Made by a program: the position numbers and the translations under genes. Positions 16,230-54,296 of a stretch of 64,000 nucleotides of DNA are shown here, one piece after another (within the stretch, counting starts at the first letter, position 1; each line of letters begins with the position of its first letter). A model generated the notes under the pieces. It had not been told where the DNA came from, made no database searches, and worked only from the letters and a program-made list of their open reading frames with translations. This DNA is from an uncultured Acidobacteriota bacterium (GTDB taxonomy: Bacteria > Acidobacteriota > Polarisedimenticolia > Polarisedimenticolales > DASRJG01), in NCBI GenBank assembly GCA_964511835.1, contig CAZEII010000012.1, positions 17,569-81,568 on the forward strand. Reading direction: 5' to 3'.

Positions 16230-16404
16230 CGAGCCTCCCTCGTCCTTATACGGCCCCGCGAGCTACGGGGTTATCCGGTCGGCCACCGCCCGCATGAGCG
16301 CGTCGGCGCGGACGGAGCCGACGACACGACGGGAGCACGCGGACGTCTCGTCTTACGCGAATTGTACCCGGATGGCGGGACTCCGATAGGCTTATCCATG
16401 GGAG

Positions 16405-25293: not shown

Positions 25294-25371
25294 GGGTCCG
25301 GGGCGAGTCGGCCGTCCGGCACGAAACTTTGTATGATGCCCGTGGTTTCCAATCAGGCACGGGTTAGCACG

Positions 25372-26604: not shown

Positions 26605-26605
26605 G

Positions 26606-27923: not shown

Positions 27924-27947
27924 AAGTTGCAGGCGAAGGAGGCGAGC

Positions 27948-30295: not shown

Positions 30296-30314
30296 GTTGG
30301 CTCCTACGATCGGA

Positions 30315-30911: not shown

Positions 30912-31096
30912 CGCCGGTCCCCTTCGATATGACGCGTGGCATCCTTCACGGCCTCGTCGGGACTTCTGCCGCCGTCGCGCGCGAGGACGTAGGCGGCGTA
31001 CCACCCGGACCAGTGGTGCTTCGGGGCGGTCGGTTCGTATTGGCCGTGATGGATCTCCGCCTCTCGCAGCAGCTCCGTCAGAGTCGCCAGGTTCAT
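30908..31096 (-). CDS. Small protein resembling the C-terminal helical extension of some glyoxalases
   Basis: LLREAEIHHGQYE...HWSGWYAAYV; GGACG RBS-like site; TTGA coupling to the downstream gene. Confidence 0.7.
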   Translation of the reverse strand: MNLATLTELLREAEIHHGQYEPTAPKHHWSGWYAAYVLARDGGRSPDEAVKDATRHIEGDRR

Positions 31097-31122
31097 GGCT
31101 CGTCCCCCGTCCGCCGGTTCGC

Positions 31123-31560
31123 TCACACGCGTCCGGGGAGCCGCGTCTTGATTTCCTGGAGCAACCAGCCGTTGCCGTCCGGATCTTTGAACGTAGCGAG
31201 CGTACTGTAGGAGCGACCCTCCGGATCGGGGCCCGGTACCGGTGATCCTCCGAAGCCGGTGAAATGGAACGTGTCGCTCACGTCGGCGCCGCGGCGTTTG
31301 AGATCGGCACGCGCCGCCTCGATGTCGTTCACCACGAGGTACAGGTTCTGGACCGAGCCCGGCGCCGCCGCCGTGACTCGCTTCCCGAAGTGAATGGAGC
31401 ATGACGAACCGGGAGGCGTGAACTGGATCACCCGAAAATCGTTCTCTCCTGGGAAGTCGGCGTCCAGCCGCCACCCCAGCCCCTCGTAGAAGCGTTTGGC
31501 ACGATCGACATCGGACACGGGAATCACGACGACCTCGAGCTTCATTTCGACTTTGCTCAT
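31123..31560 (-). CDS. VOC/glyoxalase family protein
   Basis: LEVVVIPVSDVDRAKRFY, QFTPPGSSCSIHFG, FKDPDGNGWLLQE. Confidence 0.93.
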   Translation of the reverse strand: MSKVEMKLEVVVIPVSDVDRAKRFYEGLGWRLDADFPGENDFRVIQFTPPGSSCSIHFGKRVTAAAPGSVQNLYLVVNDIEAARADLKRRGADVSDTFHFTGFGGSPVPGPDPEGRSYSTLATFKDPDGNGWLLQEIKTRLPGRV

Positions 31561-32951: not shown

Positions 32952-33121
32952 CTCCGGTACCTCTTGGTATCGGTTTCGACTTGCCTCCGTGCCGATACCA
33001 TCGTCTCATAGATCGGGCATCGCAGCTCTGATCCGATGTGACACGGGTAAGCGAATGCGCAAAATGAAAGCCCCAGGGCAGTGAGGCTTCGTTTCGCCGC
33101 GGCATACGCTCGTATGAGCAT
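32867..33121 (-). CDS. Putative small Cys-rich protein (84 aa) or frameshifted N-terminal extension of the reductase
   Basis: GAGAGGA RBS and ATG just after the rhodanese stop; FCAFAYPCHIGSELRCPIY; overlaps the reductase start out of frame. Confidence 0.35.
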   Translation of the reverse strand: MLIRAYAAAKRSLTALGLSFCAFAYPCHIGSELRCPIYETMVSARRQVETDTKRYRSWPRSSTSSVSAVVSPEKRSRSAFRTAA

Positions 33122-33135
33122 GCGGTCCTCTCGCC

Positions 33136-34077
33136 TCAAGCCTCACCGCTGCGCTCCACCGGATGCCCCGCGGCGGCCCAAGCATCGAGGCCTCCGGCGA
33201 GAGGCCGGACTCTCGTGAACCCCCTGGCGATGAGCAGGCGTGCCGCACGGGCCGCCGAGGCTTCGTTGGGTCACGTGCAATACAGGACGATCTCGCGCTC
33301 GAAGGAGACGCCCTCGAGCTCCGCGTCGAGCGGGTCCAGACTGAGGAGCCGCGAGCCCGGAATCGCCCGTCCGTCACGGAGACGTGCCGCCTCCGAGCGA
33401 ACGTCGAAGACTCCGGGCGGGTCGTCCGTCGCCAGTCGTGCTGCGAGCTCGTCGGGAGCGATCCTTCTCATCGCGAAGGCGCGCGTGAACCGTAGGCGCT
33501 CCCAGATGCGCCAGGCGACGTAGAGAACGAGCATGGCGAGCACGACCGTCGCCGCGCCCTTACCCATCGATTCCAGCACCGCGAGCGCGTCCTCGATCTG
33601 CCTCGACAGAAGGGCCCCCGCCAGCATCGCGCTCGCGGACCATAGAAGGGCGCCGATCGCGTCGAACAGGAGGAACGTCCGAACCCGCATGCCCGATGCC
33701 CCCGCCAGCGACGTCGAGACGGCGGACAGCCCCGGGACGAACTTCGCGATGAGGAGCGCGCGCGCGCCGAACCGCGTGAAGAGCGACTCCGTCTGCCTGA
33801 CGCACGCGTCGGGCGAGAGGGAGACCTTGCAAACGAGGCGAAGCGCCACGTCCCCATGCCGGCGTCCGACCGCAAACCAGATGGCGTCCGCGCCGACCGC
33901 CGCCAGCATGGCGACGAGCGCGGTGAGTCCCGCCGGCATCCCGCCGTCGCGGGCGACGGCGCCGGCGACGACGAGCGTCGGGACGGCCGGAATCGGCAGC
34001 CCCAGCTGGTCGACGAAGACGTTCAGGGCGACGAACGAAACCCCGTGGGCGGCGATGAGCTGGACCGGAGTGCGCAT
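33136..34077 (-). CDS. DedA/VTT-rhodanese fusion, putative selenoprotein (in-frame TGA at 33271-33273)
   Basis: DedA motifs (GLPIPA, AKFVPGLS, FLLFDAIGALLW). The rhodanese domain continues past TGA: IVLYCT*PNEASAARAARLLIARGFTRVRPLAGGLDAW; next stop at 33136-33138. Confidence 0.85.
33237..33256 (-). promoter_or_regulatory. Candidate bacterial SECIS hairpin
   Basis: mRNA GGCG-GCC[CGUGC]GGC-A-CGCC: 7 GC pairs and one bulge; loop 21 nt after UGA with G at loop position 2. Confidence 0.6.
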
Positions 34078-34157
34078 CTTTCTCCTCCCGCGAGTCGGGC
34101 GACGATTGTGTCACGGCATCCGGGAGAGTTTGGGGTAACCTCAAGCAGGGCACGAAC

Positions 34158-34463
34158 GTGACTTGGATCCGCGTCTTGGACGATCGAGAGCTTCCGGAAG
34201 GGAGCATGACGCCGGTGTATCCCCTCGGAATCCACCTTGTTCTCGCCCGTGTGGGCGGTGCCGTCTTTGCCGTAGCGGGGAAGTGCGCTCACATGGCGTG
34301 TCCCCTGTCCGGGGGGACCCTCGATGGCTACATCCTCAAGTGTGGCTGCCACGACTGGCGGTTCGATGTCAGGACGGGGCGGTTCGTCGACGCTCCGGAG
34401 CTGGGCATTGCGGTCTACCCGACCAAGTCCGAGTCGGGGAACCTCTACGTCGGCATGGGATGA
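34158..34463 (+). CDS. Rieske (2Fe-2S) ferredoxin
   Basis: CAH...CGCH ligand motifs, FDVRTG. Confidence 0.92.
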   Translation: MTWIRVLDDRELPEGSMTPVYPLGIHLVLARVGGAVFAVAGKCAHMACPLSGGTLDGYILKCGCHDWRFDVRTGRFVDAPELGIAVYPTKSESGNLYVGMG

Positions 34464-34475
34464 CTGGAGATCATC

Positions 34476-34721
34476 ATGAAGAAGGTATCGATGTACACGC
34501 TTTCCACCTGTCCTTGGTGCCGAAAGGCGAAGAATTACTTCAAAGAGCACAACGTCCCGTTCGAGTTCATCGACTACGACTTGGCCGACCAGGCCACGCA
34601 GGACCGGATCATGCGAGAGCTCGACAAAGAGGGAGTCAGCGGCTTTCCGTACGTGCGCATCGGAGAGACCGGCGTCGAGGGGTACCAGCCGGCACGTTAT
34701 GCCGAGCTCCTCGGCCTCTAG
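34476..34721 (+). CDS. Glutaredoxin/NrdH-like protein
   Basis: YTLSTCPWC, FIDYD, GFPYVRIG. Confidence 0.93.
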   Translation: MKKVSMYTLSTCPWCRKAKNYFKEHNVPFEFIDYDLADQATQDRIMRELDKEGVSGFPYVRIGETGVEGYQPARYAELLGL

Positions 34722-34730
34722 AGAAGAGCG

Positions 34731-35066
34731 ATGGACGCTGAATCGAGAAAACGGGCGCTGCGGCAGTTCTACGGGAAGGTCGTCAAGCCTCTGGGGTTCA
34801 AGTTCACTCCGGACTCCGATCTCTCCGAATTCCTCCTCGATCAAGAGGTCAAGCTCGAAGAGAAGCATGGTGTGCCGTTTTGTCCGTGCCGGCCCATCCG
34901 TCGGGACAGAGCCCGCGACATGCAGATCGTCTGCCCCAGCATCCCCTTTCACCGCGCGCACTTCGATGCCATGAAGCGATGCTGGTGCGGGCTTTTCGTC
35001 CACGAGGACGTCACCGACCCGGACAGCCTGCCGCAGGTGCCTGCGAAGGAGCTGGGCATTGAGTGA
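34731..35066 (+). CDS. Ferredoxin-thioredoxin reductase catalytic-subunit-like protein (atypical CPS motif)
   Basis: HGVPFCPCRP...VCPSIPF...RCWCGLFV. Confidence 0.85.
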   Translation: MDAESRKRALRQFYGKVVKPLGFKFTPDSDLSEFLLDQEVKLEEKHGVPFCPCRPIRRDRARDMQIVCPSIPFHRAHFDAMKRCWCGLFVHEDVTDPDSLPQVPAKELGIE

Positions 35067-35469
35067 CGAGTTCGTCCGCGGCATCCGCGCCGACGAGGTC
35101 GCTCCGGGAGGCATGAAGGCGATCGAGCTCAATGGCCGCGAGATCGTGGTGTGCAACGTCGACGGAACGTACTACGCGATCGATCGGCGCTGCGGACACA
35201 TGAGCGCGCCGCTCGAAAAGGGGACTCTGGACGGGACCATCGTCACGTGCGCCTTTCACAGCGCCCAGTTCGACGTCGCGACGGGCGAGGTGCTGGGACC
35301 TCCGGTCATGCCGTACGTGGACGAAGTGCCGCCGCCGCGGATCGCCGCGCTCCTGCAGACTTCGGGGGCGCTGATGCAGCACATCCGGACGGGTCCGATC
35401 GGTACGTACGAGGTCAAGGTCGACTCGGAGTGGGTGCTCGTGGCGCTCGAGCGGCGGAAAGATCGATGA
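35059..35469 (+). CDS. Rieske (2Fe-2S) ferredoxin with C-terminal insertion
   Basis: RRCGHM...TCAFH, FDVATG; TTG start overlaps the FTR stop. Confidence 0.88.
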   Translation: MSDEFVRGIRADEVAPGGMKAIELNGREIVVCNVDGTYYAIDRRCGHMSAPLEKGTLDGTIVTCAFHSAQFDVATGEVLGPPVMPYVDEVPPPRIAALLQTSGALMQHIRTGPIGTYEVKVDSEWVLVALERRKDR

Positions 35470-35591
35470 CGGAACCGTCTCGCTGGCTTGACGACGGCGA
35501 AGGGCGGTCCTAGACTCGATTCACCGCGCGAGGCATGTTGCCCGCGCGCTCGACCCGCCGGGCGCGATGGCCCTGGCGAGAGGAGGCTTCG

Positions 35592-36083
35592 ATGATCCCC
35601 AGAGTTCATCCCGCCGTTATCGTCTGGAATCGACAGGGCGAAGCGTGCCGCGCGAGCCATGCCGGCTGCGGCCCGGCCGCCTACGAAAGTGGCGCGAGCT
35701 GGTCGTGCTCGCCGGCCGATGCCGAGGATTTCGGCGCCGGCGGAGGTTTCGGCGTCCGGCGCCCGCTGCGCTTCCTGGCGTTCAAGCTGCAGCTCGACGA
35801 GGCGCAGCGCGCGAAGCTCGCTCATATCCTGAGCGAGCTGAAGACCGAGCGCGCGCAGGCGGCCGTCGACGACCGTCGGACGCTGGCGGCGTTCGCGGAC
35901 GCGATCTCGGCCGAATCGTTCGACGCCACGAAGGCCGGCTCCGGAGCGGCCCTTAGAAGCAAGAGCGCGGAGAAACTGGCGGGGTCCGTCGCCGCGGCGC
36001 TCGAGCGGATTCATGCGCTCTTGACGCCCGAGCAGCGCGAGCGTTTCGCCTACTTGATCCGCGCGGGGCAGATCGTTCTGTGA
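35592..36083 (+). CDS. Spy/CpxP-like helical protein
   Basis: AGGAGG RBS; KLQLDEAQRAKL and HALLTPEQRERF (LTxxQ motifs). Confidence 0.75.
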   Translation: MIPRVHPAVIVWNRQGEACRASHAGCGPAAYESGASWSCSPADAEDFGAGGGFGVRRPLRFLAFKLQLDEAQRAKLAHILSELKTERAQAAVDDRRTLAAFADAISAESFDATKAGSGAALRSKSAEKLAGSVAAALERIHALLTPEQRERFAYLIRAGQIVL

Positions 36084-37015
36084 GCTTGGCTCCCATGCCG
36101 TCGTCCGATGCCGAGCTTCTCGACGCGTACTCGACGTCGGTCGTCGCCGTCGCGGAGGCGGTCAGTCCGGTCGTCGTGAAGATCGACGCGCGAGGCGCGT
36201 CGGGCTCCGGATTGATCGTCGCCGCAGACGGGTTCGTCGTGACGAACGATCACGTCGTCGAGCGCGCGAACAAGCTCGAGATTACGCTCGCCGACGGTCG
36301 GACGGCATCCGGGGCCGTCGTGGGCCGCGACCCCGACACGGATCTCGCCGTTCTGCGCGTCGAGGGGGATGAGCTGGCCGCAGCGAAGCTCGGGGACTCC
36401 GCAGCTCTAAGAGTCGGACAGCTCGTCGTCGCCATCGGCAATCCTTACGGATTCCGGTGCACGGTGACGGCTGGAGTCGTCAGCGCCTTGGGCCGGTCGC
36501 TCCGCGCGCGCTCGGGGCGGCTCATCGACGACGTGATCCAGACCGACGCCGCTTTGAACGCCGGGAGCTCGGGCGGCCCGCTCGTCAACTCCCGCGGCGA
36601 GGTCGTCGGCGTCAACACCGCGATGATCCTGCCGGCGCACGGGCTCTGCTTCGCGATCGCGATCAACACGGCGAAGTGGGTGATCGGGAGGCTCCTCCGA
36701 GACGGTCGCGTGCGCCGGAGCTACCTGGGGATCGCGGGGCAGAACACCTCGCTCGACCGGCGAGTCGCTCGGCTTCACGGCCTGGAGGGAGAGACCGGAG
36801 TTTCGGTGCTGTCGACGGAACCGGGTGGACCCGCACAGAAAGCCGGTCTGCGCGAGGGGGACGTCGTGGTCCGGATCGACGGACACCGGGTCCGCGGGAT
36901 GGATGACCTTCAGCGCCTGCTGACCGACGAGGCTCCGTCAGCGTCGAGGACGATCACCGTGATCCGCGGCGTCGAGATCCTCGAACGTTCCGTCCATTCC
37001 GCCGTGCGGGGGTGA
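36080..37015 (+). CDS. S1C (HtrA/DegS-like) serine protease with PDZ domain
   Basis: VVTNDHVV, DTDLAVLRV, IQTDAALNAGSSGGPL, GPAQKAGLREGDVV. Confidence 0.93.
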   Translation: MSLAPMPSSDAELLDAYSTSVVAVAEAVSPVVVKIDARGASGSGLIVAADGFVVTNDHVVERANKLEITLADGRTASGAVVGRDPDTDLAVLRVEGDELAAAKLGDSAALRVGQLVVAIGNPYGFRCTVTAGVVSALGRSLRARSGRLIDDVIQTDAALNAGSSGGPLVNSRGEVVGVNTAMILPAHGLCFAIAINTAKWVIGRLLRDGRVRRSYLGIAGQNTSLDRRVARLHGLEGETGVSVLSTEPGGPAQKAGLREGDVVVRIDGHRVRGMDDLQRLLTDEAPSASRTITVIRGVEILERSVHSAVRG

Positions 37016-37047
37016 TCGGGGGGTCGGTCTCAAGGTAGACTCCGCGG

Positions 37048-38184
37048 ATGATGAACCAGCGGATTCTCATCCTCGGCGCCGGGTTCGCGGGGCTCGAGCT
37101 CTCGACCGCCTTGTCGGAGGCCTTCGGCGACGGCATCTCCGTCACGCTGATCGACAAGGCCGAGAGCTTCGTCTTCGGCTACGCGAAGCTGGACGTCATG
37201 TTCGGCCACAGGACGCTCGCCGATGTCGAGCTGCCCTATCGGTGCGTCGGCAAGCCGGGGGTGACGCTCAGGCGGGAGACGATCACGTCGATTGACCTGG
37301 CGTCACGCCGCGTCACGACCGACGCCGGCACGCACGAGGGCGACGTTCTCGTGATCGCTCTCGGCGCCGACTACGACGTCGCGAGCACGCCCGGCGTGGT
37401 GCTCGGCGAGAACGAGTTCTACTCGGTCCAGGGCGCGGCCCGCATGCGCGAGGCGCTGCCCGGCTTTCGCAAGGGGCACGCCGTCGTCGGAGTCTGTGGG
37501 GCGCCCTACAAATGCCCCCCCGCGCCGAGCGAGTGCGCGTTGATGCTCCACGATTATCTCGTCGGCCGCGGCGTGCGCGGGGACTGCACGATCACGCTCG
37601 TCAATCCGCTCCCGAGCCCCGTGCCGCCGTCCCCCGACACCTCGAAAGCGCTGATCGCGGCGTTCGCCGAGCGCGGGATCGAGTATCTCCCGAGCAAGCG
37701 GGTCGTTCGGGTGGATCGCGACCGCCGACTCGTCGTTCTCAATGAGGGGACCGAGATCCCCTGCGACCTGTTCCTCGGTGTGCCGAGGAACACGGCGCCC
37801 CCAGTGGTCGTGGCGACGGGAATGACGGAGGACGGGTGGGTGACGGTCGATCCGCACACGCTCGAGACGAAATACCCCGGCGTCTACGCCGTCGGCGATC
37901 TCGCCAACACGGGCGCGCCCAAAGCGGGGGTCTTCGCCGAGGGCACGGCGCGCACCGTCGCGGCGAATCTCATTGCGAAGCTGCGCGGGCAGGCGCAGAC
38001 GGCGAAGTATCCCGGCGCAGGATCTTGCTTCATCGAGTTCGGCGGCGGCCGCGTCGCGCGCGTCGACGTCGATTTCTTCTCGGGTCCCCGGCCGACCGGG
38101 AGCTACCACGAGCCGTCGGAGGCGCTGCGCGCCGACAAGCAGCAGTTCGGCGCCACGCGTCGCGCTCGGTGGTTCGGACGATAA
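37048..38184 (+). CDS. FAD-dependent oxidoreductase, sulfide:quinone oxidoreductase/FCSD-like
   Basis: LGAGFAG, YKCPPAPSE, VYAVGD, PKAGVFAE, SCFIEFG. Confidence 0.88.
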   Translation: MMNQRILILGAGFAGLELSTALSEAFGDGISVTLIDKAESFVFGYAKLDVMFGHRTLADVELPYRCVGKPGVTLRRETITSIDLASRRVTTDAGTHEGDVLVIALGADYDVASTPGVVLGENEFYSVQGAARMREALPGFRKGHAVVGVCGAPYKCPPAPSECALMLHDYLVGRGVRGDCTITLVNPLPSPVPPSPDTSKALIAAFAERGIEYLPSKRVVRVDRDRRLVVLNEGTEIPCDLFLGVPRNTAPPVVVATGMTEDGWVTVDPHTLETKYPGVYAVGDLANTGAPKAGVFAEGTARTVAANLIAKLRGQAQTAKYPGAGSCFIEFGGGRVARVDVDFFSGPRPTGSYHEPSEALRADKQQFGATRRARWFGR

Positions 38185-41839: not shown

Positions 41840-43378
41840 CTAGACCCCCGCGGTCACGACGCTCGAGGCGATGCCGGCGTCATCCCGCGCGGCGAGCCTG
41901 GCTCGAAACCGGAGATGGCGCCGGCGCGTCATCTCGACGATCGGCCGCCAGACCCTGTGCACCTGGTGATGCCGGATCAAGAGGCGCCACAACCGATTCG
42001 ACCGCTTGTACAAGTAGGACATGGCAAGGTACGCGCCGAGCGCGCGCCAGTCTTCCGGACGGCGCCGCCAGATCGAGGCGTGCGAGAACAGGCGCTCGTA
42101 GATCCAGGCATACCCCTCCTCGAGCTCCTCCGGCGTCATGTGCTTCGGCCGGAAGACGCAGTGCGCCGTGTCGTAGCGGCTCCAGTCGCGGTGCAGCAGG
42201 CGGCCCTCGGCTTCCATCCTGCGGAACAGCGGCGTGCCCGGGTACGGCGTGAGGATGTGGAACGTGGCGCACTCCAGGCGATTCGATTCGACCCAGTCCG
42301 CCGTGCGCGCAAAGACGTCCTTCCCGTCGTGGTCGAAGCCGAGCACGAACGACCCGTTCACCTGAATCCCGTTGTCATGAAGGATGCGCACGCGCCGAGC
42401 GTAGTCGGCCGACTTCGGAGTCTTCTTGTGCGCGTCGGCCAGATTCTGGTCGCTCAACGATTCGAGGCCGATGAAGACTCCCGTGCACCCGGCGAGCGCC
42501 ATCTCCCGGATGAGCCCCGGATCGTCGGTGACGTCCAGGGTCACCGCCGCGCTCCAGATCTTGTCCAGAGGGCGAAGCTCCCGGCACAGCGCCCGGAGAT
42601 AGTCGGGACGCGAGCCGAGGTTGTTATCGACGAAGACGGCGTAGGGCTGTCCGTCGGCCTCGAATTCTGCCGCGATCTGCCTCGGATCGCGCATGCGGTA
42701 CGGCATCCGGAGACCGTCGGTCGCGAGATAGCAGAAGCCGCAGCGGTTGTGGCATCCGCGGGTGGCGATGAGGCTCGTCGTCGTGAGGAAGCCGTGGCGC
42801 GGCAGGAGGTCGCGGCGGGGCGCCGGATCGTCGCGATAGTCGTTGTCGTAGTCGGCGGCGTATCGCGCGCGAAGCGTGCCCGCTTCGACGTCCTTCAAGA
42901 TGCGAGGCCAGAGCTGGACGCCGTCGCCGAGCGCCAGGGCATCGGCGTGGGGAGCGCATTCGTCCGGACACGAGAGCACGTGAAGGCCGCCGAGGACGAC
43001 CTTGCTGCCGCGACGACGATACCAACGGGCCAGCTCGTACGCGCGCGCGGCGAACGTCAGGTGGACGGAGATGCCGATGACCTCGGGAAGCGGGTCGAAC
43101 GGCGGCCTCCCGTCGAGCAGGTTCTCGTCCCAGTAGGCGAGGCGCCAGTGGGCCGGTGTCGTCGCCGCAAAGCTCGTGAGCGCGAGCGTCGGCGTCAGCA
43201 CGTGCTTGCCGAACGAAGCGTTCGGGTCCTTGCGGTAGAACGGATTGACGAGGAGCGCGTAGCGCCGCTCGAGCCCATGCGAGACCCGCGCGGGGTCGAG
43301 CGCAGGCGCCTGCACCATGTCCACGGGGAGCCGCTTGGTCCGCTTCGGCCGGGGGGAAACGTGCGGTGGTGAAGTCAT
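41840..43378 (-). CDS. B12-binding-domain radical SAM protein
   Basis: VVLGGLH, TRGCHNRCGFC (CxxxCxxC), FVDNN, FIGLES, FVLGFD, LTPYPGTPL. Confidence 0.92.
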   Translation of the reverse strand: MTSPPHVSPRPKRTKRLPVDMVQAPALDPARVSHGLERRYALLVNPFYRKDPNASFGKHVLTPTLALTSFAATTPAHWRLAYWDENLLDGRPPFDPLPEVIGISVHLTFAARAYELARWYRRRGSKVVLGGLHVLSCPDECAPHADALALGDGVQLWPRILKDVEAGTLRARYAADYDNDYRDDPAPRRDLLPRHGFLTTTSLIATRGCHNRCGFCYLATDGLRMPYRMRDPRQIAAEFEADGQPYAVFVDNNLGSRPDYLRALCRELRPLDKIWSAAVTLDVTDDPGLIREMALAGCTGVFIGLESLSDQNLADAHKKTPKSADYARRVRILHDNGIQVNGSFVLGFDHDGKDVFARTADWVESNRLECATFHILTPYPGTPLFRRMEAEGRLLHRDWSRYDTAHCVFRPKHMTPEELEEGYAWIYERLFSHASIWRRRPEDWRALGAYLAMSYLYKRSNRLWRLLIRHHQVHRVWRPIVEMTRRRHLRFRARLAARDDAGIASSVVTAGV

Positions 43379-43385
43379 GCAATGT

Positions 43386-43414
43386 ACTTTGCATCACAAA
43401 GCTTATCTTGTCAA
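43386..43414 (-). promoter_or_regulatory. Sigma70-like promoter TTGACA-N17-CAAAGT with overlapping palindrome CTTTG-N5-CAAAG
   Basis: Read directly from the AT-rich intergenic sequence upstream of the radical SAM ATG. Confidence 0.5.
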
Positions 43415-43436
43415 GGGACGCTTCGGGACGCGCCGA

Positions 43437-44603
43437 TCAGCGTCGGGCCGGCGGGAAGACCTTCGCGATGCTCAGGGTGACCGCGATGTCGGCGGTGTTC
43501 TCGAACGTGAACAGGTTCTCCGTCAGGGCGAACCGATAGACCCAGTTGTGGGATTCGGCCTGGATCCCGAGCGACGTCAGGTACTTGTTCGCCTTCAGCT
43601 CTTCGAGGTCCGTGTCGCGAATGACGCTCGGGCTCGCGTAGAACTGCAGGATGCCGTTGACGTGGCGGCTCATCTTGAATTCCCACGCGAAGATCCCCGT
43701 CGGGACGCGCATACGCTGGTCTGAGATGCCTTGAAGATCCGTTCCGCCGTACGAGACCAGGCTCGTGGTGAGATAGAGAGCCTGCCTCTCGAAAAAGCCC
43801 TGCAGCGAGACCTGGAGGCCGTAGTCGGTCTCGCCGCTCGCGACATAGGCCCGCGCATCGCGGAATGCCGGCTTCACCGCGGTCTCCACGATCACGTTCC
43901 ACCGTCTCGGCACCGGGACGACCGAGTAACGGACGCCGATCGCCGGATCGCCGAGGCCGTCGTCGGGGGGCGACGTGAAGGTGACGGTCCCGCCTTTGGT
44001 CTTTCGCAAGACGAAGAATTGATTGCGGTCCGTCAGCTCCCGGTCGCCGGTGCCGACCCCCACGAGGTTGTGGAATCCCTCGATCGTCGAGTCGAGGAAT
44101 CCCTTCCGGAAGATGAATGCGGGAACGGTGAAGTATCCGCCCCAGTGGGGACTGAATCGATAGTGCCCGGTCAGGTCGAACACGCCGAGCTCCCCGTCGA
44201 CGATGTAGGCCTCGTCTCCGATCGCGAGGATTGCGGGCACGTCTTCCGGACCGAGGTGGACGCGGTTGCCGCCCCCCCTCGCCCTCAGGTAGTCCGCGAC
44301 GTTTCTGCTGAGCACGTAGGTATTCTGGTAGGACAGGTTCAGCTCGAGCGCCCACGTGCGCGGAGGGGCCGTGACCGCATGGGCCGGCAGGAAGTCCATC
44401 CTGAGAAGCCCGAACGGCGTGAGGTCGCGGATGCGGAGCGGGCCGAGGTGAACCCACGGCGCGGGAGGCACGCCGCCGGTCTCCTCGGAATGTCGCGCGC
44501 GCTCGTTCTCCACCGCGTTCGCGGAGAGGAAACCCTGGGCCAAGGAGCCCAGGACAATGATGGTATGCGTGGCGATGCGACCCAGCTTTGCTCCGAACGA
44601 CAC
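43437..44603 (-). CDS. DUF3187-like outer-membrane protein
   Basis: LRIRDLTPFG, TIEGFHNLVG, GLGDPAIG, FALTENL; beta-strand pattern. Confidence 0.75.
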   Translation of the reverse strand: MSFGAKLGRIATHTIIVLGSLAQGFLSANAVENERARHSEETGGVPPAPWVHLGPLRIRDLTPFGLLRMDFLPAHAVTAPPRTWALELNLSYQNTYVLSRNVADYLRARGGGNRVHLGPEDVPAILAIGDEAYIVDGELGVFDLTGHYRFSPHWGGYFTVPAFIFRKGFLDSTIEGFHNLVGVGTGDRELTDRNQFFVLRKTKGGTVTFTSPPDDGLGDPAIGVRYSVVPVPRRWNVIVETAVKPAFRDARAYVASGETDYGLQVSLQGFFERQALYLTTSLVSYGGTDLQGISDQRMRVPTGIFAWEFKMSRHVNGILQFYASPSVIRDTDLEELKANKYLTSLGIQAESHNWVYRFALTENLFTFENTADIAVTLSIAKVFPPARR

Positions 44604-44625
44604 GCCCCCTCCTGCGATCCGAGGA

Positions 44626-45237
44626 TCAGGTTCGAGTGAATCGTGTATACCAGAACTCTTGCGTCTTACCGGCGGGGGTCACGTGGGGCTCCGTTACCGC
44701 TTCGTCGAGGTGAAAGCGCGGGCCGAGCTCCCGCGCCAATGTTTCGGGAGAGTAGCGCGCCACCGGCAGGTCGCTGCACACCGGCGGTCCCTCGAGAGCG
44801 AACGTCGCGATGATCAGCGAGCCGCCGGGACGAAGAGCTTCGTTCAAGCGCGCTCGATAGCGGTCACGTTCCGTCGCGTCGGTCAAGAAATGAAACACGG
44901 CGCGATCGTGCCAGACATCGACGGCGGGTACGGGCCACTCCGCCGTGACGTCCGCCTCGATCCAGCTCACGAGGGAGGCCCGGGCACCAAGCCGCTCCTT
45001 GGCCCGTGCCAGGGCGATCGGCGAGATGTCGAGCACGCTGACGCACGTCAGCCCACGTTCGATGAGGTGATCGACGAGACGAGAATCCCCGCCCCCGACG
45101 TCGATCACTCACGTCGCCGGTGACAACCCGGCGTTGGCGAGCAACCGGGCCGAGACCGTCGGCGCAGCCTGGTACCAGCTCACCGCGTCCGCGGCCTTCG
45201 ACTTGTAGACCGCCTCCCAGTGCGACTTGTCGCTCAT
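44626..45237 (-). CDS. Class I SAM-dependent methyltransferase with in-frame TGA at codon 43 (selenoprotein candidate or nonsense pseudogene)
   Basis: MSDKSHWEAVY...VSWYQ...SPAT*VIDVGGGDSRLVD...DVWHDRAVFHFL; ATG overlaps the sortase stop (ATGA); TGA at 45109-45111. Confidence 0.8.
45067..45108 (-). promoter_or_regulatory. Candidate SECIS-like hairpin directly 3' of UGA
   Basis: 10-bp perfect lower stem GUGAUCGACG/CGUCGAUCAC, 5' bulge UCGG, 7-bp upper stem with G-U pairs, GAUU loop 21 nt from UGA. Confidence 0.45.
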
Positions 45238-45947
45238 CCGTGCACTCTAGCGCGTCTGTTCCCGTCTCCGGCGGCCCTGCGCGCCCGGATCGCGTACCGC
45301 CGAGGGGCGTCGCCGACGTAGTAGAACGGGTAGCAGGTCACCAGGGTGATCGCCGAGACGGCGGTGGGGCGGAGGACATCGACGGCGGCGGGATCGACGA
45401 TTCGAATCTCGTCCACCACGTAGGTCAGGCTGGCGTCGAGCGTCTCGAGCGTGACGGCATCGCCCGGCCGAACGTCTTTCAGTCCTCGGAAGAATCCGTC
45501 CCGGTGCCCCGCGATGCCGGAGTTCCCTGCTTCACCGGGGCGAGCCGTCCCCTCGATCCATCCGACGCCGCGATTCAGACGGAGCTCGTCCGTTCCATTC
45601 AAGACCGGAACCTCGAGCCCGATTCTTGGAATGCGCAGGATTGCGAGCGGCGACCCGACGTCCGCTCCGAGCTGGTCCTTGTAATGGCGGACCCGCTGCG
45701 GCGACCAGAGCCGGGTGTCGACGTCGGAGACAACGTTGAGAGTCCGACGCGTCACCGCGGGAGGAGACGCGGCGGGATCGGCGGCTTGGGCGAGATGTTC
45801 CTTCCTTGCGGACTCGAAGCGTTCGATCTCCGCCCGCCGCATCGCCTCCCCGTAGCCCCGCGCGGCCAGGTAGAACGCGATCGCCGCGAGCCCAGCGATG
45901 ATGAAGACACGCTCGGCGACGCGAAGCTTGCTTAGGGGGCTCGTCAC
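45234..45947 (-). CDS. Class D-like sortase
   Basis: N-terminal TM, LRIPRIGLEVPV, GNSGIAGHRD, ITLVTCYPFY, RRYAIRA. Confidence 0.92.
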   Translation of the reverse strand: MTSPLSKLRVAERVFIIAGLAAIAFYLAARGYGEAMRRAEIERFESARKEHLAQAADPAASPPAVTRRTLNVVSDVDTRLWSPQRVRHYKDQLGADVGSPLAILRIPRIGLEVPVLNGTDELRLNRGVGWIEGTARPGEAGNSGIAGHRDGFFRGLKDVRPGDAVTLETLDASLTYVVDEIRIVDPAAVDVLRPTAVSAITLVTCYPFYYVGDAPRRYAIRARRAAGDGNRRARVHG

Positions 45948-45966
45948 GCCGATGAGATGGAACGGG

Positions 45967-46710
45967 TCAGCTCTGCGCGAGGAGCCGCCGAACGAGGGTC
46001 GACGCGATCCCGAGCCCGAGCAGCGCGACGCCGACGATTCCGATCAAGGGAAGCGAGCTTCCCGTCTTCGGCAGCTTCTTGGGCGCGGCGGCCGGCGGTG
46101 GCGGTGGCGGCGGCGTGGACTCCGCGGCCGGAGCGGGCTTCGCCACCGGACGCGGTGGCGGAGGCGGGCTCGAGACGAATGCCTTGAGCTCGGTGTCGGT
46201 GACGATCATGGGCGGCAGCTTCGTCACGATGGTCGCCGAGAGCCGGTCCCCTTTCTTCAGCTTCGTCACGTCGACCCTCTCGCCGGCCCTGTAGACGACG
46301 AGATCCAGGTCCCTCAACTGGGCCGTCGTGAACTGTCTGTTCTCGTTCGTCTTGAGGTCCTTGACGATGATCGTGCCCGCGCTGACGTAGACGACCTCGG
46401 CGTCGCGGACCTCGTTGGTCGTCACTTCGATCGGCGTTTCCGTCGTCGTGACCATCGCCGTGACCTTCATGCCGGGCTTCAGCTGGTGAACGGACAGCTT
46501 CTGACCGTCCATGTCGAACCGGAAATCCTCGGGAACCACGAATTGCCTCACGCCCGCAGGCCCTCGGGCAGTGACGATGTTGCCGTCGACCGCGAGAATC
46601 TCTCCGCTGCGCAGCTCCACCGTCGTGAGCTGGGCCATCGTAGGTGCCGAGACCGCCCAGCCAACGATCACGACCATCAGCAGACCCGTCGTTACGAGCA
46701 CACGTCTCAT
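45967..46710 (-). CDS. Secreted LPXTG-anchored protein
   Basis: Signal peptide, Pro-rich linker, LPKTG + hydrophobic segment + RR tail. Confidence 0.88.
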   Translation of the reverse strand: MRRVLVTTGLLMVVIVGWAVSAPTMAQLTTVELRSGEILAVDGNIVTARGPAGVRQFVVPEDFRFDMDGQKLSVHQLKPGMKVTAMVTTTETPIEVTTNEVRDAEVVYVSAGTIIVKDLKTNENRQFTTAQLRDLDLVVYRAGERVDVTKLKKGDRLSATIVTKLPPMIVTDTELKAFVSSPPPPPRPVAKPAPAAESTPPPPPPPAAAPKKLPKTGSSLPLIGIVGVALLGLGIASTLVRRLLAQS

Positions 46711-50232: not shown

Positions 50233-50883
50233 ATGATCCGACGGGCCCGGCTGACCGCATTCGGCGTTCTCGCCGCCGTCACGGCGCTCGGCGCGGCGGG
50301 CAGCAAGCCGGCGCCGCCGCCGGCGAGGCCGTCGTTCCGGTGGCCGGTGCCCACGGGATGGCGCAAGGAGACGATCCCGTTCCCGCTCGATTTCGCGAAG
50401 GATCTCCCCTACTCCGGGGTCGAGGAGATCCGCTTCGCGCCGGGCATGTTCACTCCCGGCGAGCGCGGATACTGGTCGTACGCGTTCGTCTGGTGGCTCA
50501 ACGGCCATCCGCGCCTCGGTGCAACGGATCTCCAGAACGCCCTCGAGCGCTACTTCGCGGGGTTGAGCACCAGCGTCGCGAAGGAGAAGGGTTTCGCGAT
50601 CGACCCCCAGCGTTTCGTTGTGTCCATTCAGCCGCTGCCCGGCTCGCCCGAAAAACTCGGGCACCCGGCGCATCGGTTCACCGGAACGGTCGACTCGTAC
50701 GACGCGTTCACGACGGGCAAGCCGATCGTCCTCAATCTCGAGGTCTGGGTGTGGGACTGCAAAGACTCCGGCAAGCGGGCCGCGATGGTGCTTGCCTCAC
50801 CCGCGGACACAGGCGATCCGGTGTGGAACTCGCTCCGCGACCGGCGCGACGAGTTCGTTTGTCATGGCGGTACTCGACAGTGA
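50233..50883 (+). CDS. Secreted hypothetical protein
   Basis: Signal peptide; WRKETIPFPLDFA, EEIRFAPGMF, WSYAFVWW. Confidence 0.75.
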   Translation: MIRRARLTAFGVLAAVTALGAAGSKPAPPPARPSFRWPVPTGWRKETIPFPLDFAKDLPYSGVEEIRFAPGMFTPGERGYWSYAFVWWLNGHPRLGATDLQNALERYFAGLSTSVAKEKGFAIDPQRFVVSIQPLPGSPEKLGHPAHRFTGTVDSYDAFTTGKPIVLNLEVWVWDCKDSGKRAAMVLASPADTGDPVWNSLRDRRDEFVCHGGTRQ

Positions 50884-51456
50884 TGTCGGGGCGCGCTCGT
50901 GTGCGCAATAGGCCACGTACCGCCACGGCGAGTGCAGCCAGCCACGGAAGGGCCAGCAGGTGACGATCGTCAGCCGATCGCCATCGTCCTGCAGCACTCG
51001 AGAGTCGTCGAAGCGCACGACGCCGGTCGCGACGACGCGGTAGACCGCCCGCCGGCCCGGGGCTTCGAGCACGATCTCATCGTCGGACTTCAGCTCCTCG
51101 AGGAACGAAGCCCAACTGTCCCTGTGGCCGGCGAGCACGCAATTGCCGAATGCCGTGGGGGCGGCCGTTCCGTCGACGTGGCCGATCCCGAATGCGAGAG
51201 CGGAGCCGGACGCGTTCGACAGCACGGGCCGCTCGATCCCGAGGCGCGGCACGGTGAGCCGCGCGATGGGGTGCATGTCGGCCCAGGCCCAGGGGCGGTG
51301 CCCGCGGCCGTCCTCGAGCGTCGCGGCGAGGGCGCGGCGGATGAGCACCTCACCCACCGCCCCTTTCGCCTCGACCCATCCGGCTCGCGCCACGAGCAAC
51401 GCCCCAGGGAGCAGCAGCGCGATTCCGACGACGGCCGCGAGCGTCGTGCGTCTCAC
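50797..51456 (-). CDS. Class GN sortase
   Basis: GTGA overlap with the target gene; PWAWADMHPIARL, GNCVLAGHRD, LTIVTCWPF. Confidence 0.88.
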   Translation of the reverse strand: MRRTTLAAVVGIALLLPGALLVARAGWVEAKGAVGEVLIRRALAATLEDGRGHRPWAWADMHPIARLTVPRLGIERPVLSNASGSALAFGIGHVDGTAAPTAFGNCVLAGHRDSWASFLEELKSDDEIVLEAPGRRAVYRVVATGVVRFDDSRVLQDDGDRLTIVTCWPFRGWLHSPWRYVAYCAHERAPTSLSSTAMTNELVAPVAERVPHRIACVRG

Positions 51457-53393
51457 GCCGACGCCGACACAGCGCGGCTGGCGCGCAAGAGAACGAAGCC
51501 CCCGATCGCGCACAGGACGACACCGAGCACGAACAGCAGGGGTTCGTCGCTCCCGCCCTGGGGGAGAACGTCCCCATCGTCTCGCCGGGATTCGCTCGGC
51601 GCGGCGTAGGAGTCGTCCGCCACGACGACGAAGCTCGTGTAGGTGGTGACCAACGAGAAGCGCTTCGCGAGGTCGACGACGTCGGCGCGCACGGCGGCCG
51701 GATCGGCCCCGTGCACCCGCGATTGCTCGAGGCTCGCGATCCGCGCGCGCGCCCATCGGGTGCCGATTCCGGCATCCCGGCTCGCCTGCGCGAAATCGAC
51801 GTCCATCGTCACCGGCCCGCCCGGCGCGCGCCCCCAAACGCGAAGCTTGGGGAGAGGGCGTGCGGGATCGAAGCGGGCGGTCACCACGAGCGGTCGGCCT
51901 GCGTAGAGATCGGGAACGGGAGCCGGGCCGACTTCGAGCGGCGCCGCGCCGTCCCACTCGAGCGTCACGTCGGTGATCGCCGCCCGCTCGGTCCGCTCGA
52001 GCAGCGCGACGGTCTTCGCCTGGACGTCGCCGATGTTGCCGATCGCCTCGAAGCTGCCGCGTCCGGCCCGGGCCAGCTCTTTCATGAGCCAGCGGTTAGG
52101 AGCGAACCCGATGCCGACGACATGGAGCCTCGTGCCGCCGAGGCGCCGCCCCACCTCGGCGACGACCTCGTCTTCGTTCTCGACCGCGCCGTCGGTGATG
52201 AGGATCACGCGCTGCAAGACGGACGGGTCGCCGCGACTCGAGATGTCGAGCGCACGGACGAGAGCCGGCAGGATCTCCGTGCCGCTCCCTGCCGTGAGCC
52301 CGGACACCCAGCGCTTCGCGGCGGCTGTCGCATCGGGATCCGCGGCGATGAACCTGTCCGAGTAGGCCTCGTTGTTGCTGTCGAACTTGATCAGCGTGAA
52401 GGTGTCTCCCGGGCGCAGGCGGTCGAGGGCCACTTCGAGCGCCGCCTTGGCTTGCGCGAGCGAGGGCCCGGCCATCGAGCCCGACACGTCGATCACGAAC
52501 ACGGTCTGCGTCGGAAAACCATCGGCTCCGGGCCGCTCGATCTGCGGGGGAACGAGCATCGCGAGACCATAGCGTCCGTCCGCTCGCTCTTCGATCAAAC
52601 CGCCGGCGAGCGGCGCATTCGCGTTGGCCGGCCGCCACCGAAGCACGAAGTCGCGATCCGCGAAAACCGAGGCGTCGCCCGTCCGGATGTCGAAGGACGA
52701 ACCGCGCTTGGTGCTTCGGATGGTGTGAGACGGCGAGTCGATTCCGGCGAGGGGAATTCCCGCGTCCACCGTGGCACGCATCGACACCTTTGTGCCTCGA
52801 GCGACGACTCCGATCGAACTGTCCTCGCACCACGCCGAGCCTGCGGGCGCGTAGCGCGGCGTGATCGTCGTCGGAAAGACGGTCGAGAACTCCCCCGAGC
52901 TCCATTCGGCCTCGTCCAGCATCTCGAGGCGGACGACGACCGTCGCGTGCGGCGGGATGTTCGCGACCCGCGTGCGGAAGAGGTTCGGTCGGCTCTGCTC
53001 GAGCAGAGCGGCGCCCTTGCCTTCCGCCTTGGCGATCTGATAGGTCCGCTGGGCCTCCTCTTTCTCTTGGATCTTGCCGACGAAGCGCCGGTCGCCGACC
53101 TCGAGCGTGAGGCTGTCGACCGCGGCCCCTTCCGGCAGTGGGAACACGTAGTCGGCGTCGAGGGCGTCCTCGGTCGGGTTGTCGAACGATTGAACGAGCC
53201 GGCCGCGGACGACCGGCCCGGAGATCGAGAGCGTGACGTCCATGGAGTCGACCGGCAGCGGGACGAGCGTGCCGTTGATCTTCGCGAGGAGAGCTCCCGT
53301 GCCGGGGCTGTCGGCCTCGGGCGGCTGCTGTGCGCCCGCCGGGGCGTGGACGATCGAGAGGAGGGCGGCGATCAAGAGCATGTGCTTTTTCAT
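51453..53393 (-). CDS. VIT + vWA sortase-target protein
   Basis: VIT (YVFPLPEGAAVDSL), MIDAS DVSGS, VILITDG, C-terminal LPQGG + TM + R tail. Confidence 0.9.
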   Translation of the reverse strand: MKKHMLLIAALLSIVHAPAGAQQPPEADSPGTGALLAKINGTLVPLPVDSMDVTLSISGPVVRGRLVQSFDNPTEDALDADYVFPLPEGAAVDSLTLEVGDRRFVGKIQEKEEAQRTYQIAKAEGKGAALLEQSRPNLFRTRVANIPPHATVVVRLEMLDEAEWSSGEFSTVFPTTITPRYAPAGSAWCEDSSIGVVARGTKVSMRATVDAGIPLAGIDSPSHTIRSTKRGSSFDIRTGDASVFADRDFVLRWRPANANAPLAGGLIEERADGRYGLAMLVPPQIERPGADGFPTQTVFVIDVSGSMAGPSLAQAKAALEVALDRLRPGDTFTLIKFDSNNEAYSDRFIAADPDATAAAKRWVSGLTAGSGTEILPALVRALDISSRGDPSVLQRVILITDGAVENEDEVVAEVGRRLGGTRLHVVGIGFAPNRWLMKELARAGRGSFEAIGNIGDVQAKTVALLERTERAAITDVTLEWDGAAPLEVGPAPVPDLYAGRPLVVTARFDPARPLPKLRVWGRAPGGPVTMDVDFAQASRDAGIGTRWARARIASLEQSRVHGADPAAVRADVVDLAKRFSLVTTYTSFVVVADDSYAAPSESRRDDGDVLPQGGSDEPLLFVLGVVLCAIGGFVLLRASRAVSASA

Positions 53394-53591
53394 GCGGGCC
53401 TTCTTTCGACCCGGGGAAGCCTCGCGCCGAGGGCCGGGTTCACACTCGAGCGGGCGAAAGGCGTGCCACGGCTGCTGCGCGTCACGTGTTCGGATTTCAC
53501 CGCGCGGGCCGGCGCGAACGTGGGGTCCAAGACACGGGCGTGTCCGCCGGAACCCGTCGCTCGAGCGGTTCGGCCGGCCAGGAGTGCGAGA

Positions 53592-54296
53592 ATGATTCGC
53601 GTGAGCAGGCCCAGCGTTTCCTTGACGGCTCGACTCGGCCTTGGCATCTGCCTGACCGCCGTGGCTTCGGCCCAGGGCAACCCCGTCGGCGCGAAGGAGC
53701 CCGGCAAATGGTCGACGGTGCGCGGCAAGGCGAGCCTGGTCGACGCGATCTCGATTCCTCCCGGGTCGATCCTGCGATTGATGCTTCAGGACCTCGCCCA
53801 GGGAACTCGCCGAGCGGTGATCGTGGAATCCAAGGGGATCGAGCTCAAGGGGAACTTCCCGATCTCCTTCGAGCTGCCGTACAACGAGAGCCTCATCGAC
53901 CCGACCCGGCTTTATGGCCTGGCCGCGGTCGTCACCGACGTTCTCGGCCAGACGCTGGCGGAGACGCGCGTCCCGGTTCGCGTCGTGACGAAGGGCAACG
54001 GGAAGAGGGCCGATCTCGCGCTACGCCGACCGGGGAAGCCCTCCGCACCTGCCGCGGAGCCGACCGCGTTCACGGTCGGATGCGAAGGCCTCCGCTTTCA
54101 GGTTCGCATCACGGGCGACACGGCGCACGTCCGCCTACCGGAGCGCGAGCTCGTTCTTCACCGCGTCGAGGCGTCGTACGGGAAGAAGTACTCCGACGGA
54201 GCCACGATTCTGACGGTGTTCGGCGAGGCGGTGTACATCCAGCAGCACGAGAGAGCCTATCGAGATTGCAAGATCACGTCGGCCGACGGGAAGTGA
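53592..54296 (+). CDS. Secreted YbaY/YscW-like + MliC-like domain protein
   Basis: FPISFELPYNESLIDPTRLY (YbaY-like), VEASYGKKYSDG (MliC-like). Confidence 0.75.
   Translation: MIRVSRPSVSLTARLGLGICLTAVASAQGNPVGAKEPGKWSTVRGKASLVDAISIPPGSILRLMLQDLAQGTRRAVIVESKGIELKGNFPISFELPYNESLIDPTRLYGLAAVVTDVLGQTLAETRVPVRVVTKGNGKRADLALRRPGKPSAPAAEPTAFTVGCEGLRFQVRITGDTAHVRLPERELVLHRVEASYGKKYSDGATILTVFGEAVYIQQHERAYRDCKITSADGK

Follow-up and report, generated by a model that had tools for sequence, protein, structure and literature searches.

Is a TGA codon inside a methyltransferase gene of an uncultured Acidobacteriota bacterium a stop codon, or is it translated as selenocysteine (Sec)? The question is raised by a gene on the minus strand of contig CAZEII010000012.1, in a stretch of 64,000 nucleotides (the window, that is, the whole stretch of DNA analyzed here, in whose positions coordinates are given). 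In this gene a TGA at codon 43 directly precedes the glycine-rich loop that binds S-adenosylmethionine (SAM). An earlier inspection of the DNA (the original prediction) had proposed that the UGA encodes Sec. The comparative analysis reported here indicates that codon 43 is very probably decoded as Sec in a class I SAM-dependent methyltransferase of 203 residues. Three observations carry this conclusion: the column of the TGA is a cysteine column in homologs, TGA recurs in this column in other Acidobacteriota, and a hairpin at the right distance from the UGA is present only in the forms of the gene that have the TGA.

The Reading Frame and the Protein Family

The start codon of the methyltransferase gene overlaps the stop codon of the sortase gene upstream (GGATGAGC), and this ATGA overlap suggests translational coupling of the two genes. 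The frame then runs through 42 codons (MSDKSHWEAVYKSKAADAVSWYQAAPTVSARLLANAGLSPAT) to the TGA and continues with VIDVGGGDSRLVDHL... for another 160 codons. The original prediction had described an ATG coupled to the sortase stop, an N-terminus typical of the family, a TGA at codon 43, and the sequence VIDVGGG behind it, all of which agree with the sequence. The translation has a single in-frame TGA and no CxxU motif. An equivalent M-x-x-K-x-HW start is found in homologs, and the parts of the frame before and after the TGA both align to full-length homologs. The G+C content at third codon positions (GC3) is 0.95 in the 42 codons upstream of the TGA, 0.82 in the first 50 codons downstream, and 0.76 in the whole of the downstream remainder. 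In a window with 67.5% G+C, the value of 0.95 indicates that the codons before the TGA are under coding selection. Gene callers nevertheless split the gene into two open reading frames (ORFs) of 42 and 160 amino acids, and database entries model the truncated ORF.

With Cys put in place of the stop, the protein matches three Pfam models above their cut-offs: PF08242 (Methyltransf_12; 41.4 bits, cut-off 30), PF13649 (Methyltransf_25; 40.1 bits, cut-off 27), and PF08241 (Methyltransf_11; 37.3 bits, cut-off 21.2). No family-specific model of NCBIfam (release 20) matched, the top score being 26 bits for a cut-off of 180. Relatives in the protein database number in the thousands, and the best 120 have about 204 residues and 57%–64% identity over 96%–100% of the query, N-terminus included. 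The exception among them is P0001, a 160–amino acid entry that is 98% identical and starts right after the TGA column. A profile search yields 1242 cluster representatives at E <= 1e-30.

A Cys homolog (P0007) was modeled with AlphaFold2 in place of the window protein (predicted local distance difference test score 94; predicted template modeling score 0.91). This model has more than 1500 PDB matches in Foldseek at E <= 0.001, and all of the 50 matches listed have the class I methyltransferase fold. The top matches (template modeling [TM] score 0.63–0.78, Foldseek E from 1e-11 to 1e-13, identity only 12%–23%) include Ecm18, METTL6, the Mycobacterium tuberculosis heterocyclic toxin methyltransferase, the toxoflavin methyltransferase, halide methyltransferases, and TehB. 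The N-terminal 42 residues comprise two helices of the fold and the family-invariant H6, W7, W21, P26, and S29, and D70, the acidic residue at the end of β2, is invariant and closes the strand 65–70. Judging from its profile matches and from the model, the window protein is a class I (Rossmann-fold) SAM-dependent methyltransferase.

Distribution of TGA and Cysteine at Column 43

The original prediction made much depend on what homologs have in place of the TGA, with arginine as the unfavorable residue. Of the 120 best homologs, 111 have Cys in column 43, and the others include four with Arg, three with Ser, and one with Tyr. Nor is the TGA confined to this genome, a point on which the original prediction had also hung, since 19 other loci from metagenome-assembled genomes (MAGs) of Acidobacteriota and from metagenomes have TGA in the same column. 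Fourteen of these loci come from a search of genomes, one per species, with a degenerate pattern that fixed only the TGA and V-x-D-[VI]-G-G-G-D-S-[RH]-L and left third codon positions free. All 14 are in Acidobacteriota MAGs, which number 13 since one of them holds two loci. The homologous N-terminus (M-x-x-K-x-HW...VSWF) is in frame upstream of the TGA in 13 of the 14, the remaining one (L005) ending at a contig edge. Five further TGA forms occur among the 80 closest metagenome loci, where they rank among those most similar to the window protein. Together with the window gene, this gives the set of 20 TGA forms used in what follows. In these forms the frames are intact on both sides of the TGA, with no other disruptions and no frameshifts.

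The same column leaves a trace in the protein database. Among the top 150 of the 1242 cluster representatives, three have profile position 44 as their very first residue, as gene calls truncated at the TGA would be expected to have. A neighbor-joining tree distributes the Sec forms over about seven clusters that are interleaved with Cys forms, and this interleaving suggests that Cys and Sec have been exchanged repeatedly in the family.

We rejected a reassigned genetic code, as TGA is the main stop codon of the window, where it ends 35 of the 53 likely genes.

The Hairpin Downstream of the UGA

The original prediction described, in the nucleotides that follow the UGA, a perfect 10-bp stem, a bulge, a 7-bp upper stem, and a GAUU loop placed 21 nt from the UGA, and this structure was reproduced (Table 1). 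The 5′ bulge has 4 nt (UCGG), and the upper stem has 7–8 bp (GGGCGGG/CUCGUCU, G-U pairs included); the loop begins 21 nt past the UGA. The consensus for the bacterial Sec insertion sequence (bSECIS) element (Zhang and Gladyshev, summarised in PMC13188914) has a loop of 3–9 nt with a G in its first two positions, an upper stem of 4–16 bp, a distance of 16–37 nt from the UGA, and a minimum free energy (MFE) of −7.5 kcal/mol or lower. The window hairpin lies within every one of these limits, and stem, loop size, and spacing are held by all 20 TGA forms.

In each of the 20, an uninterrupted stem of 7–10 bp carries a loop of 3–6 nt that starts 20–21 nt past the UGA, and in the aligned sequences one of the first two loop positions is a G in every case. 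The mean fold of the apical segment across TGA forms is about −16 kcal/mol. Stems in 10 Cys forms, in contrast, reach 4–7 bp at most and lie at scattered positions (Mann-Whitney p = 4e-7 against TGA forms), and 62 more distant non-Cys forms resemble the Cys forms in their stems (Mann-Whitney p = 1e-11). The MFE of the whole segment does not separate Sec from Cys forms; only the position-specific apical stem and the codon usage do.

Codon usage separates the two sets at several positions of the hairpin. The codon of Gly48 is GGG or GGA in 17 of the 20 TGA forms and GGC in nine of the ten Cys forms, that of Gly50 is GGG in 18/20 versus 1/10, and that of Ser52 is TCC or TCT in all TGA forms and TCG in seven Cys forms. 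Similarly, Leu54 is encoded by CTC in 17/20 versus 2/10 and Val55 by GTG in 17/20 versus 1/10. Pairwise synonymous codon identity among TGA forms peaks at codons 50–56, with 0.70 versus 0.44 elsewhere (all codons except 44–58), and among Cys forms it has no peak (0.42 at codons 50–56, 0.49 elsewhere). The original prediction had cautioned that the stem could arise by chance from the codons of conserved residues. This caveat is answered by the Cys forms, because they encode the same peptide, GGGDSRLV, with other synonymous codons and have no hairpin.

Not all of the hairpin is conserved to the same degree. In the lower stem only 83% of cells are paired across the 20 loci, and the perfect 10 bp are peculiar to this genome; the functional conserved element is presumably the apical 8-bp stem with its loop. 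If the established bacterial mechanism applies here, the ribosome would pause at the UGA, SelB with Sec-tRNA(Sec) would be bound by the apical stem-loop that lies 21 nt downstream, Sec would be inserted at codon 43, and translation would proceed into motif I.

A Second Gene with an In-Frame UGA

Another gene of the window, a fusion of DedA(VTT) and rhodanese, has an in-frame TGA in the motif IVLYCT-U-PNEAS (LYCxU). Its top NCBIfam match is NF041203, "rhodanese_LYCAU, rhodanese-related (seleno)protein" (E = 1.3e-16, 60.4 bits, below the cut-off of 115). The UGA is followed at 21 nt by a hairpin with a CGUGC loop, which bears out the equal spacing that the original prediction had claimed for the rhodanese gene. 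The gene was detected only by tblastn with the rhodanese domains of fused members of the methyltransferase family. It was missed by a U..G.R pattern, by GC3-filtered TGA junctions, by tblastn with E. coli GlpE and PspE, and by a hairpin scan and motif search for an apical hairpin of the methyltransferase type. The fusion of DedA to rhodanese is unusual, and the gene is probably a second selenoprotein gene. It provides good, if indirect, evidence that this organism decodes Sec. Users of Sec have been reported among Acidobacteria (PMC1794560; PMC12013277).

Weighing the Readings of the UGA

Several observations weigh against Sec at codon 43. The hairpin of this sequence alone is not unusual for its composition (67% G+C), with z = −1.57 and 14 of 200 shuffles folding equally well, and for this reason its significance was judged by comparison with other sequences. 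Its GAUU loop departs from the commonest G[G/U] pattern. A test for compensatory covariation, as suggested with the original prediction, gave one double-sided change across the 20 loci and a score not above shuffles, so that no compensatory changes speak for the stem. What does speak for it is the conservation of synonymous sites in TGA forms; of the cells, 88% are paired across loci, and at most 63% in slid controls. Finally, ARAGORN found no tRNA in the 64-kb window, tRNA-Sec included, and Rfam at gathering thresholds matched no family there; when about 60 ORFs of the window were scanned with Pfam, SelA, SelB, and SelD were not among the matches. Nor did ARAGORN find a tRNA-Sec on 20 related loci. 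The original prediction regarded an absence of Sec machinery as fatal; the 64 kb hold none of it, but the contig has a second UGA gene that probably belongs to a recognized (seleno)protein family.

That the machinery was not seen in the window also speaks for a read-through of the UGA as a residue other than Sec, either by an opal-suppressing allo-tRNA or by a SelB-like factor that delivers Cys from a tRNA-Sec-like tRNA(Cys). In favor of the first, allo-tRNAs, possible missense or nonsense suppressors, are described from Acidobacteria (Mukai et al., PMC5389517). The tRNA(Cys) of the selC* type, with possible opal suppression, is reported in the same work from Firmicutes, Thermodesulfobacteria, Nitrospirae, and Proteobacteria, not from Acidobacteria, which counts against the second. 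General suppression, moreover, leaves unexplained both a hairpin at SECIS distance that only TGA forms have and the use of UGA as the main stop codon, and in the second gene of the contig the UGA falls where the named (seleno)protein family that it best matches has Sec. Read-through as a non-Sec residue is thus improbable.

A Sec codon also accounts for the locus better than two separate products would, namely a 42-residue peptide ending at the UGA and a truncated methyltransferase of 160 residues restarting at the GTG of codon 44. Such a restart has some basis, as the GTG is directly 3′ of the TGA in this gene, coupled termination and reinitiation occur in bacteria, and the database entries model just this ORF. 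But codon 44 is GTC, GTA, GTT, or ATC, none of them a start codon, in eight of the 20 TGA forms, and no sequence like a Shine-Dalgarno precedes it. The truncated enzyme would also be without the five invariant residues and the two helices of the N-terminal part. Two products are therefore very unlikely.

The locus could further be a pseudogene, in which TGC or CGA has mutated to a nonsense TGA and the hairpin is incidental. One TGC-to-TGA change would be enough, the hairpin is not significant when set against shuffles, and the locus is indeed called as two ORFs. The same-column TGA in 20 loci, in about seven clusters amid Cys forms and with intact frames, effectively refutes this explanation; the upstream GC3 and the synonymous-site constraint specific to TGA forms are likewise against it, and TGA forms do not show relaxed selection (dN/dS near 1). 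A sequencing or assembly error, with TGC or TGT as the true codon, deserves hardly any credence, for although single-base errors occur in metagenome-type assemblies such as this one, the gene with its TGA is found identical or one base different in five independent run-level assemblies (SRR12313477, -78, -79, -83, and -84), and the 98%-identical P0001 was also called as a 160–amino acid ORF beginning past column 43.

A Possible Partner for the Predicted Sec43

If codon 43 is read as Sec, the window protein has U43, C65, and C154 as its only Cys or Sec residues. Cys65 is present in all 20 TGA forms and is absent along with Cys43 in the wider family. Among 204 family sequences, 113 have Cys in both columns, 20 have Sec at 43 with Cys at 65, three have Cys at 43 alone, one has it at 65 alone, and 67 have neither. 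This joint gain and loss of Cys/Sec43 and Cys65 argues for a functional pair. The co-occurrence has a Fisher p = 5e-49, a value uncorrected for phylogeny and inflated by shared ancestry.

The original prediction had placed the two residues in the same register, T-x-VID and T-C-VSV, and both T-U-VID and T-C-VSV are indeed present. It had further considered it geometrically plausible that a Se-S bridge between them acts as a redox switch. In the model of P0007, residue 43 is the first of the strand 43–47 and residue 65 the first of the strand 65–70. In class I methyltransferases β1 and β2 are neighboring parallel strands, and given this knowledge of the fold, a backward count from G48 and from D70 would place residues 43 and 65 in register. 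The geometric part of the claim is therefore consistent with both co-occurrence and strand starts, and the switch stays conjectural. That Sec43 works as a pair with Cys65 is a tentative conclusion, to which sequence and model together lend slightly less than an even chance.

Sec is usually located in catalytic redox centers. The edge of the sheet at which the pair would lie is opposite the SAM site, which makes a role of the pair in methyl transfer itself unlikely, and a position so far from the SAM and substrate site is unusual for Sec, which weighs against a redox switch. In the scheme that these residues would allow, Sec43 and Cys65, at the N-terminal ends of the strands taken as β1 and β2, would join in a selenenylsulfide that is reversible, being reduced by partners of the glutaredoxin or thioredoxin type, and the two would make up a redox or ligand-binding module and not the site of methyl transfer. 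Some glutaredoxin partners are fused to family members, and the one examined is itself UGA-bearing (see below). A regulatory role of the Se-S pair is speculative, and the full proposal, a selenenylsulfide across β1 and β2 that serves as a non-catalytic allosteric redox switch, or as one sensing chalcogens or metalloids, and that is serviced by glutaredoxin-type partners, is rather unlikely to hold as it stands.

Cys154 behaves differently. Of 93 related loci that could be assessed, 91 retain it, as do 149 of the 150 cluster representatives listed, the exception having a gap at the column, and it is tentatively taken as the more likely substrate-side residue.

Fusions, Neighbors, and Clues to Function

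Members of the methyltransferase family are fused to glutaredoxin, rhodanese, an ArsR-type helix-turn-helix (HTH), the low-molecular-weight phosphatase family (PF01451 LMWPc), OsmC, and GNAT. PF01451 includes thioredoxin-coupled arsenate reductases as well. In the ArsR HTH, rhodanese, LMWPc, OsmC, and GNAT fusions P0134, P0198, P0220, P0252, P0172, P0197, P0190, P0177, and P0164, Cys154 is invariant and there is no Cys at 43 or 65. In the glutaredoxin fusion P0035, extending the frame upstream of the called start gives MTHTVVVFSQPG-TGA-MFCNQVKEFL, and the first Cys of the glutaredoxin CxxC is a UGA (UxxC, in ...VVVFSQPG-U-MFC...), and methyltransferase columns 43 and 65 are Arg and Ser. Three other glutaredoxin fusions (P0002, P0012, and P0013) likewise start just past a CxxC-type motif.

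Genes of the GDCCVxC (seleno)protein family (NF041374, 70–88 bits) adjoin three TGA-form genes (L008 83..301, L014 5227..5448, and L010 6896..7123). The MAG MFD02199.bin.1.6 carries two near-identical copies of the TGA form, L008 on contig 5 and L014 on contig 3, each with its GDCCVxC neighbor. Near another TGA-form gene lies a gene of a C-GCAxxG-C-C family (seleno)protein (L001 3001..4011), which scores below threshold against the DVU_1555 model, and the window methyltransferase has itself a weak match to the DVU_1556 methyltransferase model of NCBIfam. Two TGA-form genes (L004 5242..6744 and L013 2452..4074) have a C-terminal extension of about 260 residues (…EMESAALYAFA…), which by eye resembles a domain of the nucleoside phosphorylase or methylthioadenosine/S-adenosylhomocysteine-nucleosidase type.

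Because the neighborhoods of TGA forms are heterogeneous and not conserved, function is poorly constrained. The fusions to redox and metalloid domains, the (seleno)protein neighbors, and a fold like that of TehB and the halide/thiol methyltransferases suggest that the enzymes act on thiols or on reactive species of sulfur, selenium, tellurium, or arsenic. The same-strand run of the window, which extends from the gene of an LPKTG protein over the sortase and methyltransferase genes to a radical SAM gene (Table 1), was not seen at other TGA-form loci, the linkage to a sortase being specific to this genome.

Table 1. Positions of the methyltransferase gene, its elements, and associated genes
Feature	Position	Strand	Remarks
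SAM methyltransferase gene, predicted Sec at position 43, complete, 203 residues	44626..45237	minus	translation, Pfam, alignment of full-length homologs
ATG start of the methyltransferase gene	45235..45237	minus	overlaps stop of upstream sortase gene (GG-ATGA-GC)
In-frame TGA, codon 43, proposed Sec codon	45109..45111	minus	directly 5′ of strand β1 and motif I
Motif I VIDVGGG, codons 44–50, SAM-binding glycine-rich loop after β1	45088..45108	minus	D46, G48, and G50 invariant in the family
bSECIS-like hairpin in coding sequence, codons 44–57	45067..45108	minus	fold −28.2 kcal/mol
Lower stem of hairpin	45108..45099 with 45076..45067; bulge 45098..45095	minus	10 bp perfect, GUGAUCGACG/CGUCGAUCAC
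Conserved apical element	45076..45095 (stem 45095..45088 with 45083..45076, loop GAUU 45087..45084)	minus	in all 20 TGA forms
Cys65 codon TGC, start of second sheet strand, proposed Sec43 partner	45043..45045	minus	Cys in 110/120 close homologs
Cys154 codon TGC, GPxxCSGLP loop	44776..44778	minus	sole Cys conserved across the whole wider family
True stop TGA of the methyltransferase gene	44626..44628	minus	translation
Same-strand run around the methyltransferase gene	41840..46710	minus	LPKTG protein, sortase, methyltransferase, DUF3187, radical SAM
247–amino acid protein, LPKTG sorting signal and hydrophobic tail at its end	45967..46710	minus	
Upstream sortase gene	45234..45947 (stop TGA 45236..45234)	minus	Pfam Sortase
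DUF3187 gene	43437..44603	minus	follows the methyltransferase gene
Radical SAM/DUF4070 gene	41840..43378	minus	
DedA(VTT)-rhodanese fusion	33136..34077 (in-frame TGA 33273..33271)	minus	tblastn with rhodanese domains, translation, Pfam VTT_dom
Glutaredoxin-methyltransferase fusion P0035	L100 3963..4810 (TGA 3998..4000)	plus	frame 5′ of called start

The window has a second sortase gene, which adjoins the gene of a protein with VIT and von Willebrand A domains (50803..54020, minus strand), and the two look like a separate sortase-substrate pair. An EgtB-like gene (DinB_2 and FGE-sulfatase) followed by a gene for an EgtD-like histidine-specific methyltransferase (Methyltransf_33; both in 25294..27634, plus strand) forms a biosynthesis pair of the ergothioneine type. 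A redox cluster at 27924..38184 comprises a fusion of cNMP-binding and thioredoxin-reductase-like flavoprotein domains, a peroxiredoxin-like ORF (30315..31004), a glyoxalase, a dihydrolipoamide/mercuric-reductase-like flavoprotein, two Rieske proteins, a CPWC glutaredoxin, a ferredoxin-thioredoxin reductase beta chain, an LTXXQ/metal-resistance protein, and a sulfide-dehydrogenase-like flavoprotein. At 15579..16262 (minus strand) lies a gene for a membrane methyltransferase of the ICMT/PEMT family, the family that includes the methanethiol methyltransferase MddA.

Comparison with Known Systems

Bacterial genes with a bSECIS element, of which E. coli fdhF is the model, share with the window gene the alignment of UGA with Cys, a small apical loop bearing a G at the consensus distance, the intragenic position of the element, and TGA orthologs in other genomes. 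The window family differs from them in that its members are methyltransferases with a Rossmann fold, whose predicted Sec occupies the N-terminal end of β1 and is not part of a thioredoxin-like CxxC/UxxC or another evident catalytic redox motif.

Closer in enzyme class are the ArsM selenoproteins (NF008823, UxxG; ArsM/AhpD, NF041537; ArsM/DUF2284, NF041536), which are Sec-bearing class I SAM methyltransferases with Cys important for the metalloid substrate. The UxxG motif of ArsM lies in the C-terminal As(III)-binding region. In ArsM, Sec is in UxxG, whereas the window protein has T-U-V-I-D-V-G before motif I and is much shorter (203 residues). Against the window protein NF041537 scored 18.5 bits for a cut-off of 510, and NF008823 and NF041536 were not reported at E <= 0.01.

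MduS, with CxxU and two Sec, and the methyltransferase/UXPK-star double selenoproteins (cited in PMC13188914 from Haft and Tolstoy 2025) are proteins with a PF13649 methyltransferase domain and predicted Sec, as is the window protein. By their description in the table of that source they are set apart by two Sec and by CxxU/UxxG, the window protein having one Sec and neither motif, and NF047649, the model for this comparison, had no match to the window protein in the NCBIfam scan. The selenoprotein methylated-DNA-protein-cysteine methyltransferase is an enzyme of a different kind. A predicted "SAM-dependent methyltransferase" selenoprotein of the algae Ostreococcus and Thalassiosira has been called a homolog of a bacterial selenoprotein (Lobanov et al. 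2007, PMC2375036). It shares the predicted enzyme class with the window protein, and in eukaryotes the SECIS elements are located in the 3′ untranslated region.

As for structures, Ecm18 (4nec), the heterocyclic toxin methyltransferase (7ndm), and the toxoflavin methyltransferase (5ufm) have the same N-terminal helices and seven-stranded Rossmann-like core. The halide/thiol methyltransferases (9h09 and 3lcc) and TehB (2xva and 4dq0, TM score about 0.65 for TehB) share this architecture, with weak profile matches. The window protein did not match Pfam TPMT (PF05724) at E <= 0.01, a few fused homologs having weak sub-threshold matches, and TehB gave no Pfam or NCBIfam match.

No description of a methyltransferase selenoprotein with the motif [ST]-U-V-[IL]-D-[VI]-G-G-G-D was found in the literature searched, nor was the family found in the selenoprotein family tables of the 2022 and 2026 reviews. 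This is apparently a family of bacterial selenoproteins that has not yet been catalogued, with a recoding mechanism that is apparently the ordinary bacterial one.

Implications

Because gene callers and databases cut these genes into a short ORF and a fragment, the family is systematically mis-annotated in Acidobacteriota MAGs, and a family model permitting U at column 43 would fix this. The family would add to the bacterial selenoproteome a Rossmann-fold methyltransferase in which the Sec is structurally unusually placed, and would extend the use of Sec in the abundant soil Acidobacteriota (Vicinamibacterales-like). The joint gain and loss of residues 43 and 65, together with the repeated swaps of Sec and Cys, would amount to a clean natural experiment on what Sec adds, relative to Cys, in a redox or ligand pair of two residues. 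If the Sec43-Cys65 switch were true, Sec would here be used outside a classical catalytic redox center, and the family would represent an uncharacterized route for methylating reactive sulfur, selenium, tellurium, or arsenic species in soil Acidobacteriota. Such methylation, if it takes place, would bear on the volatilization of selenium and arsenic from soils.

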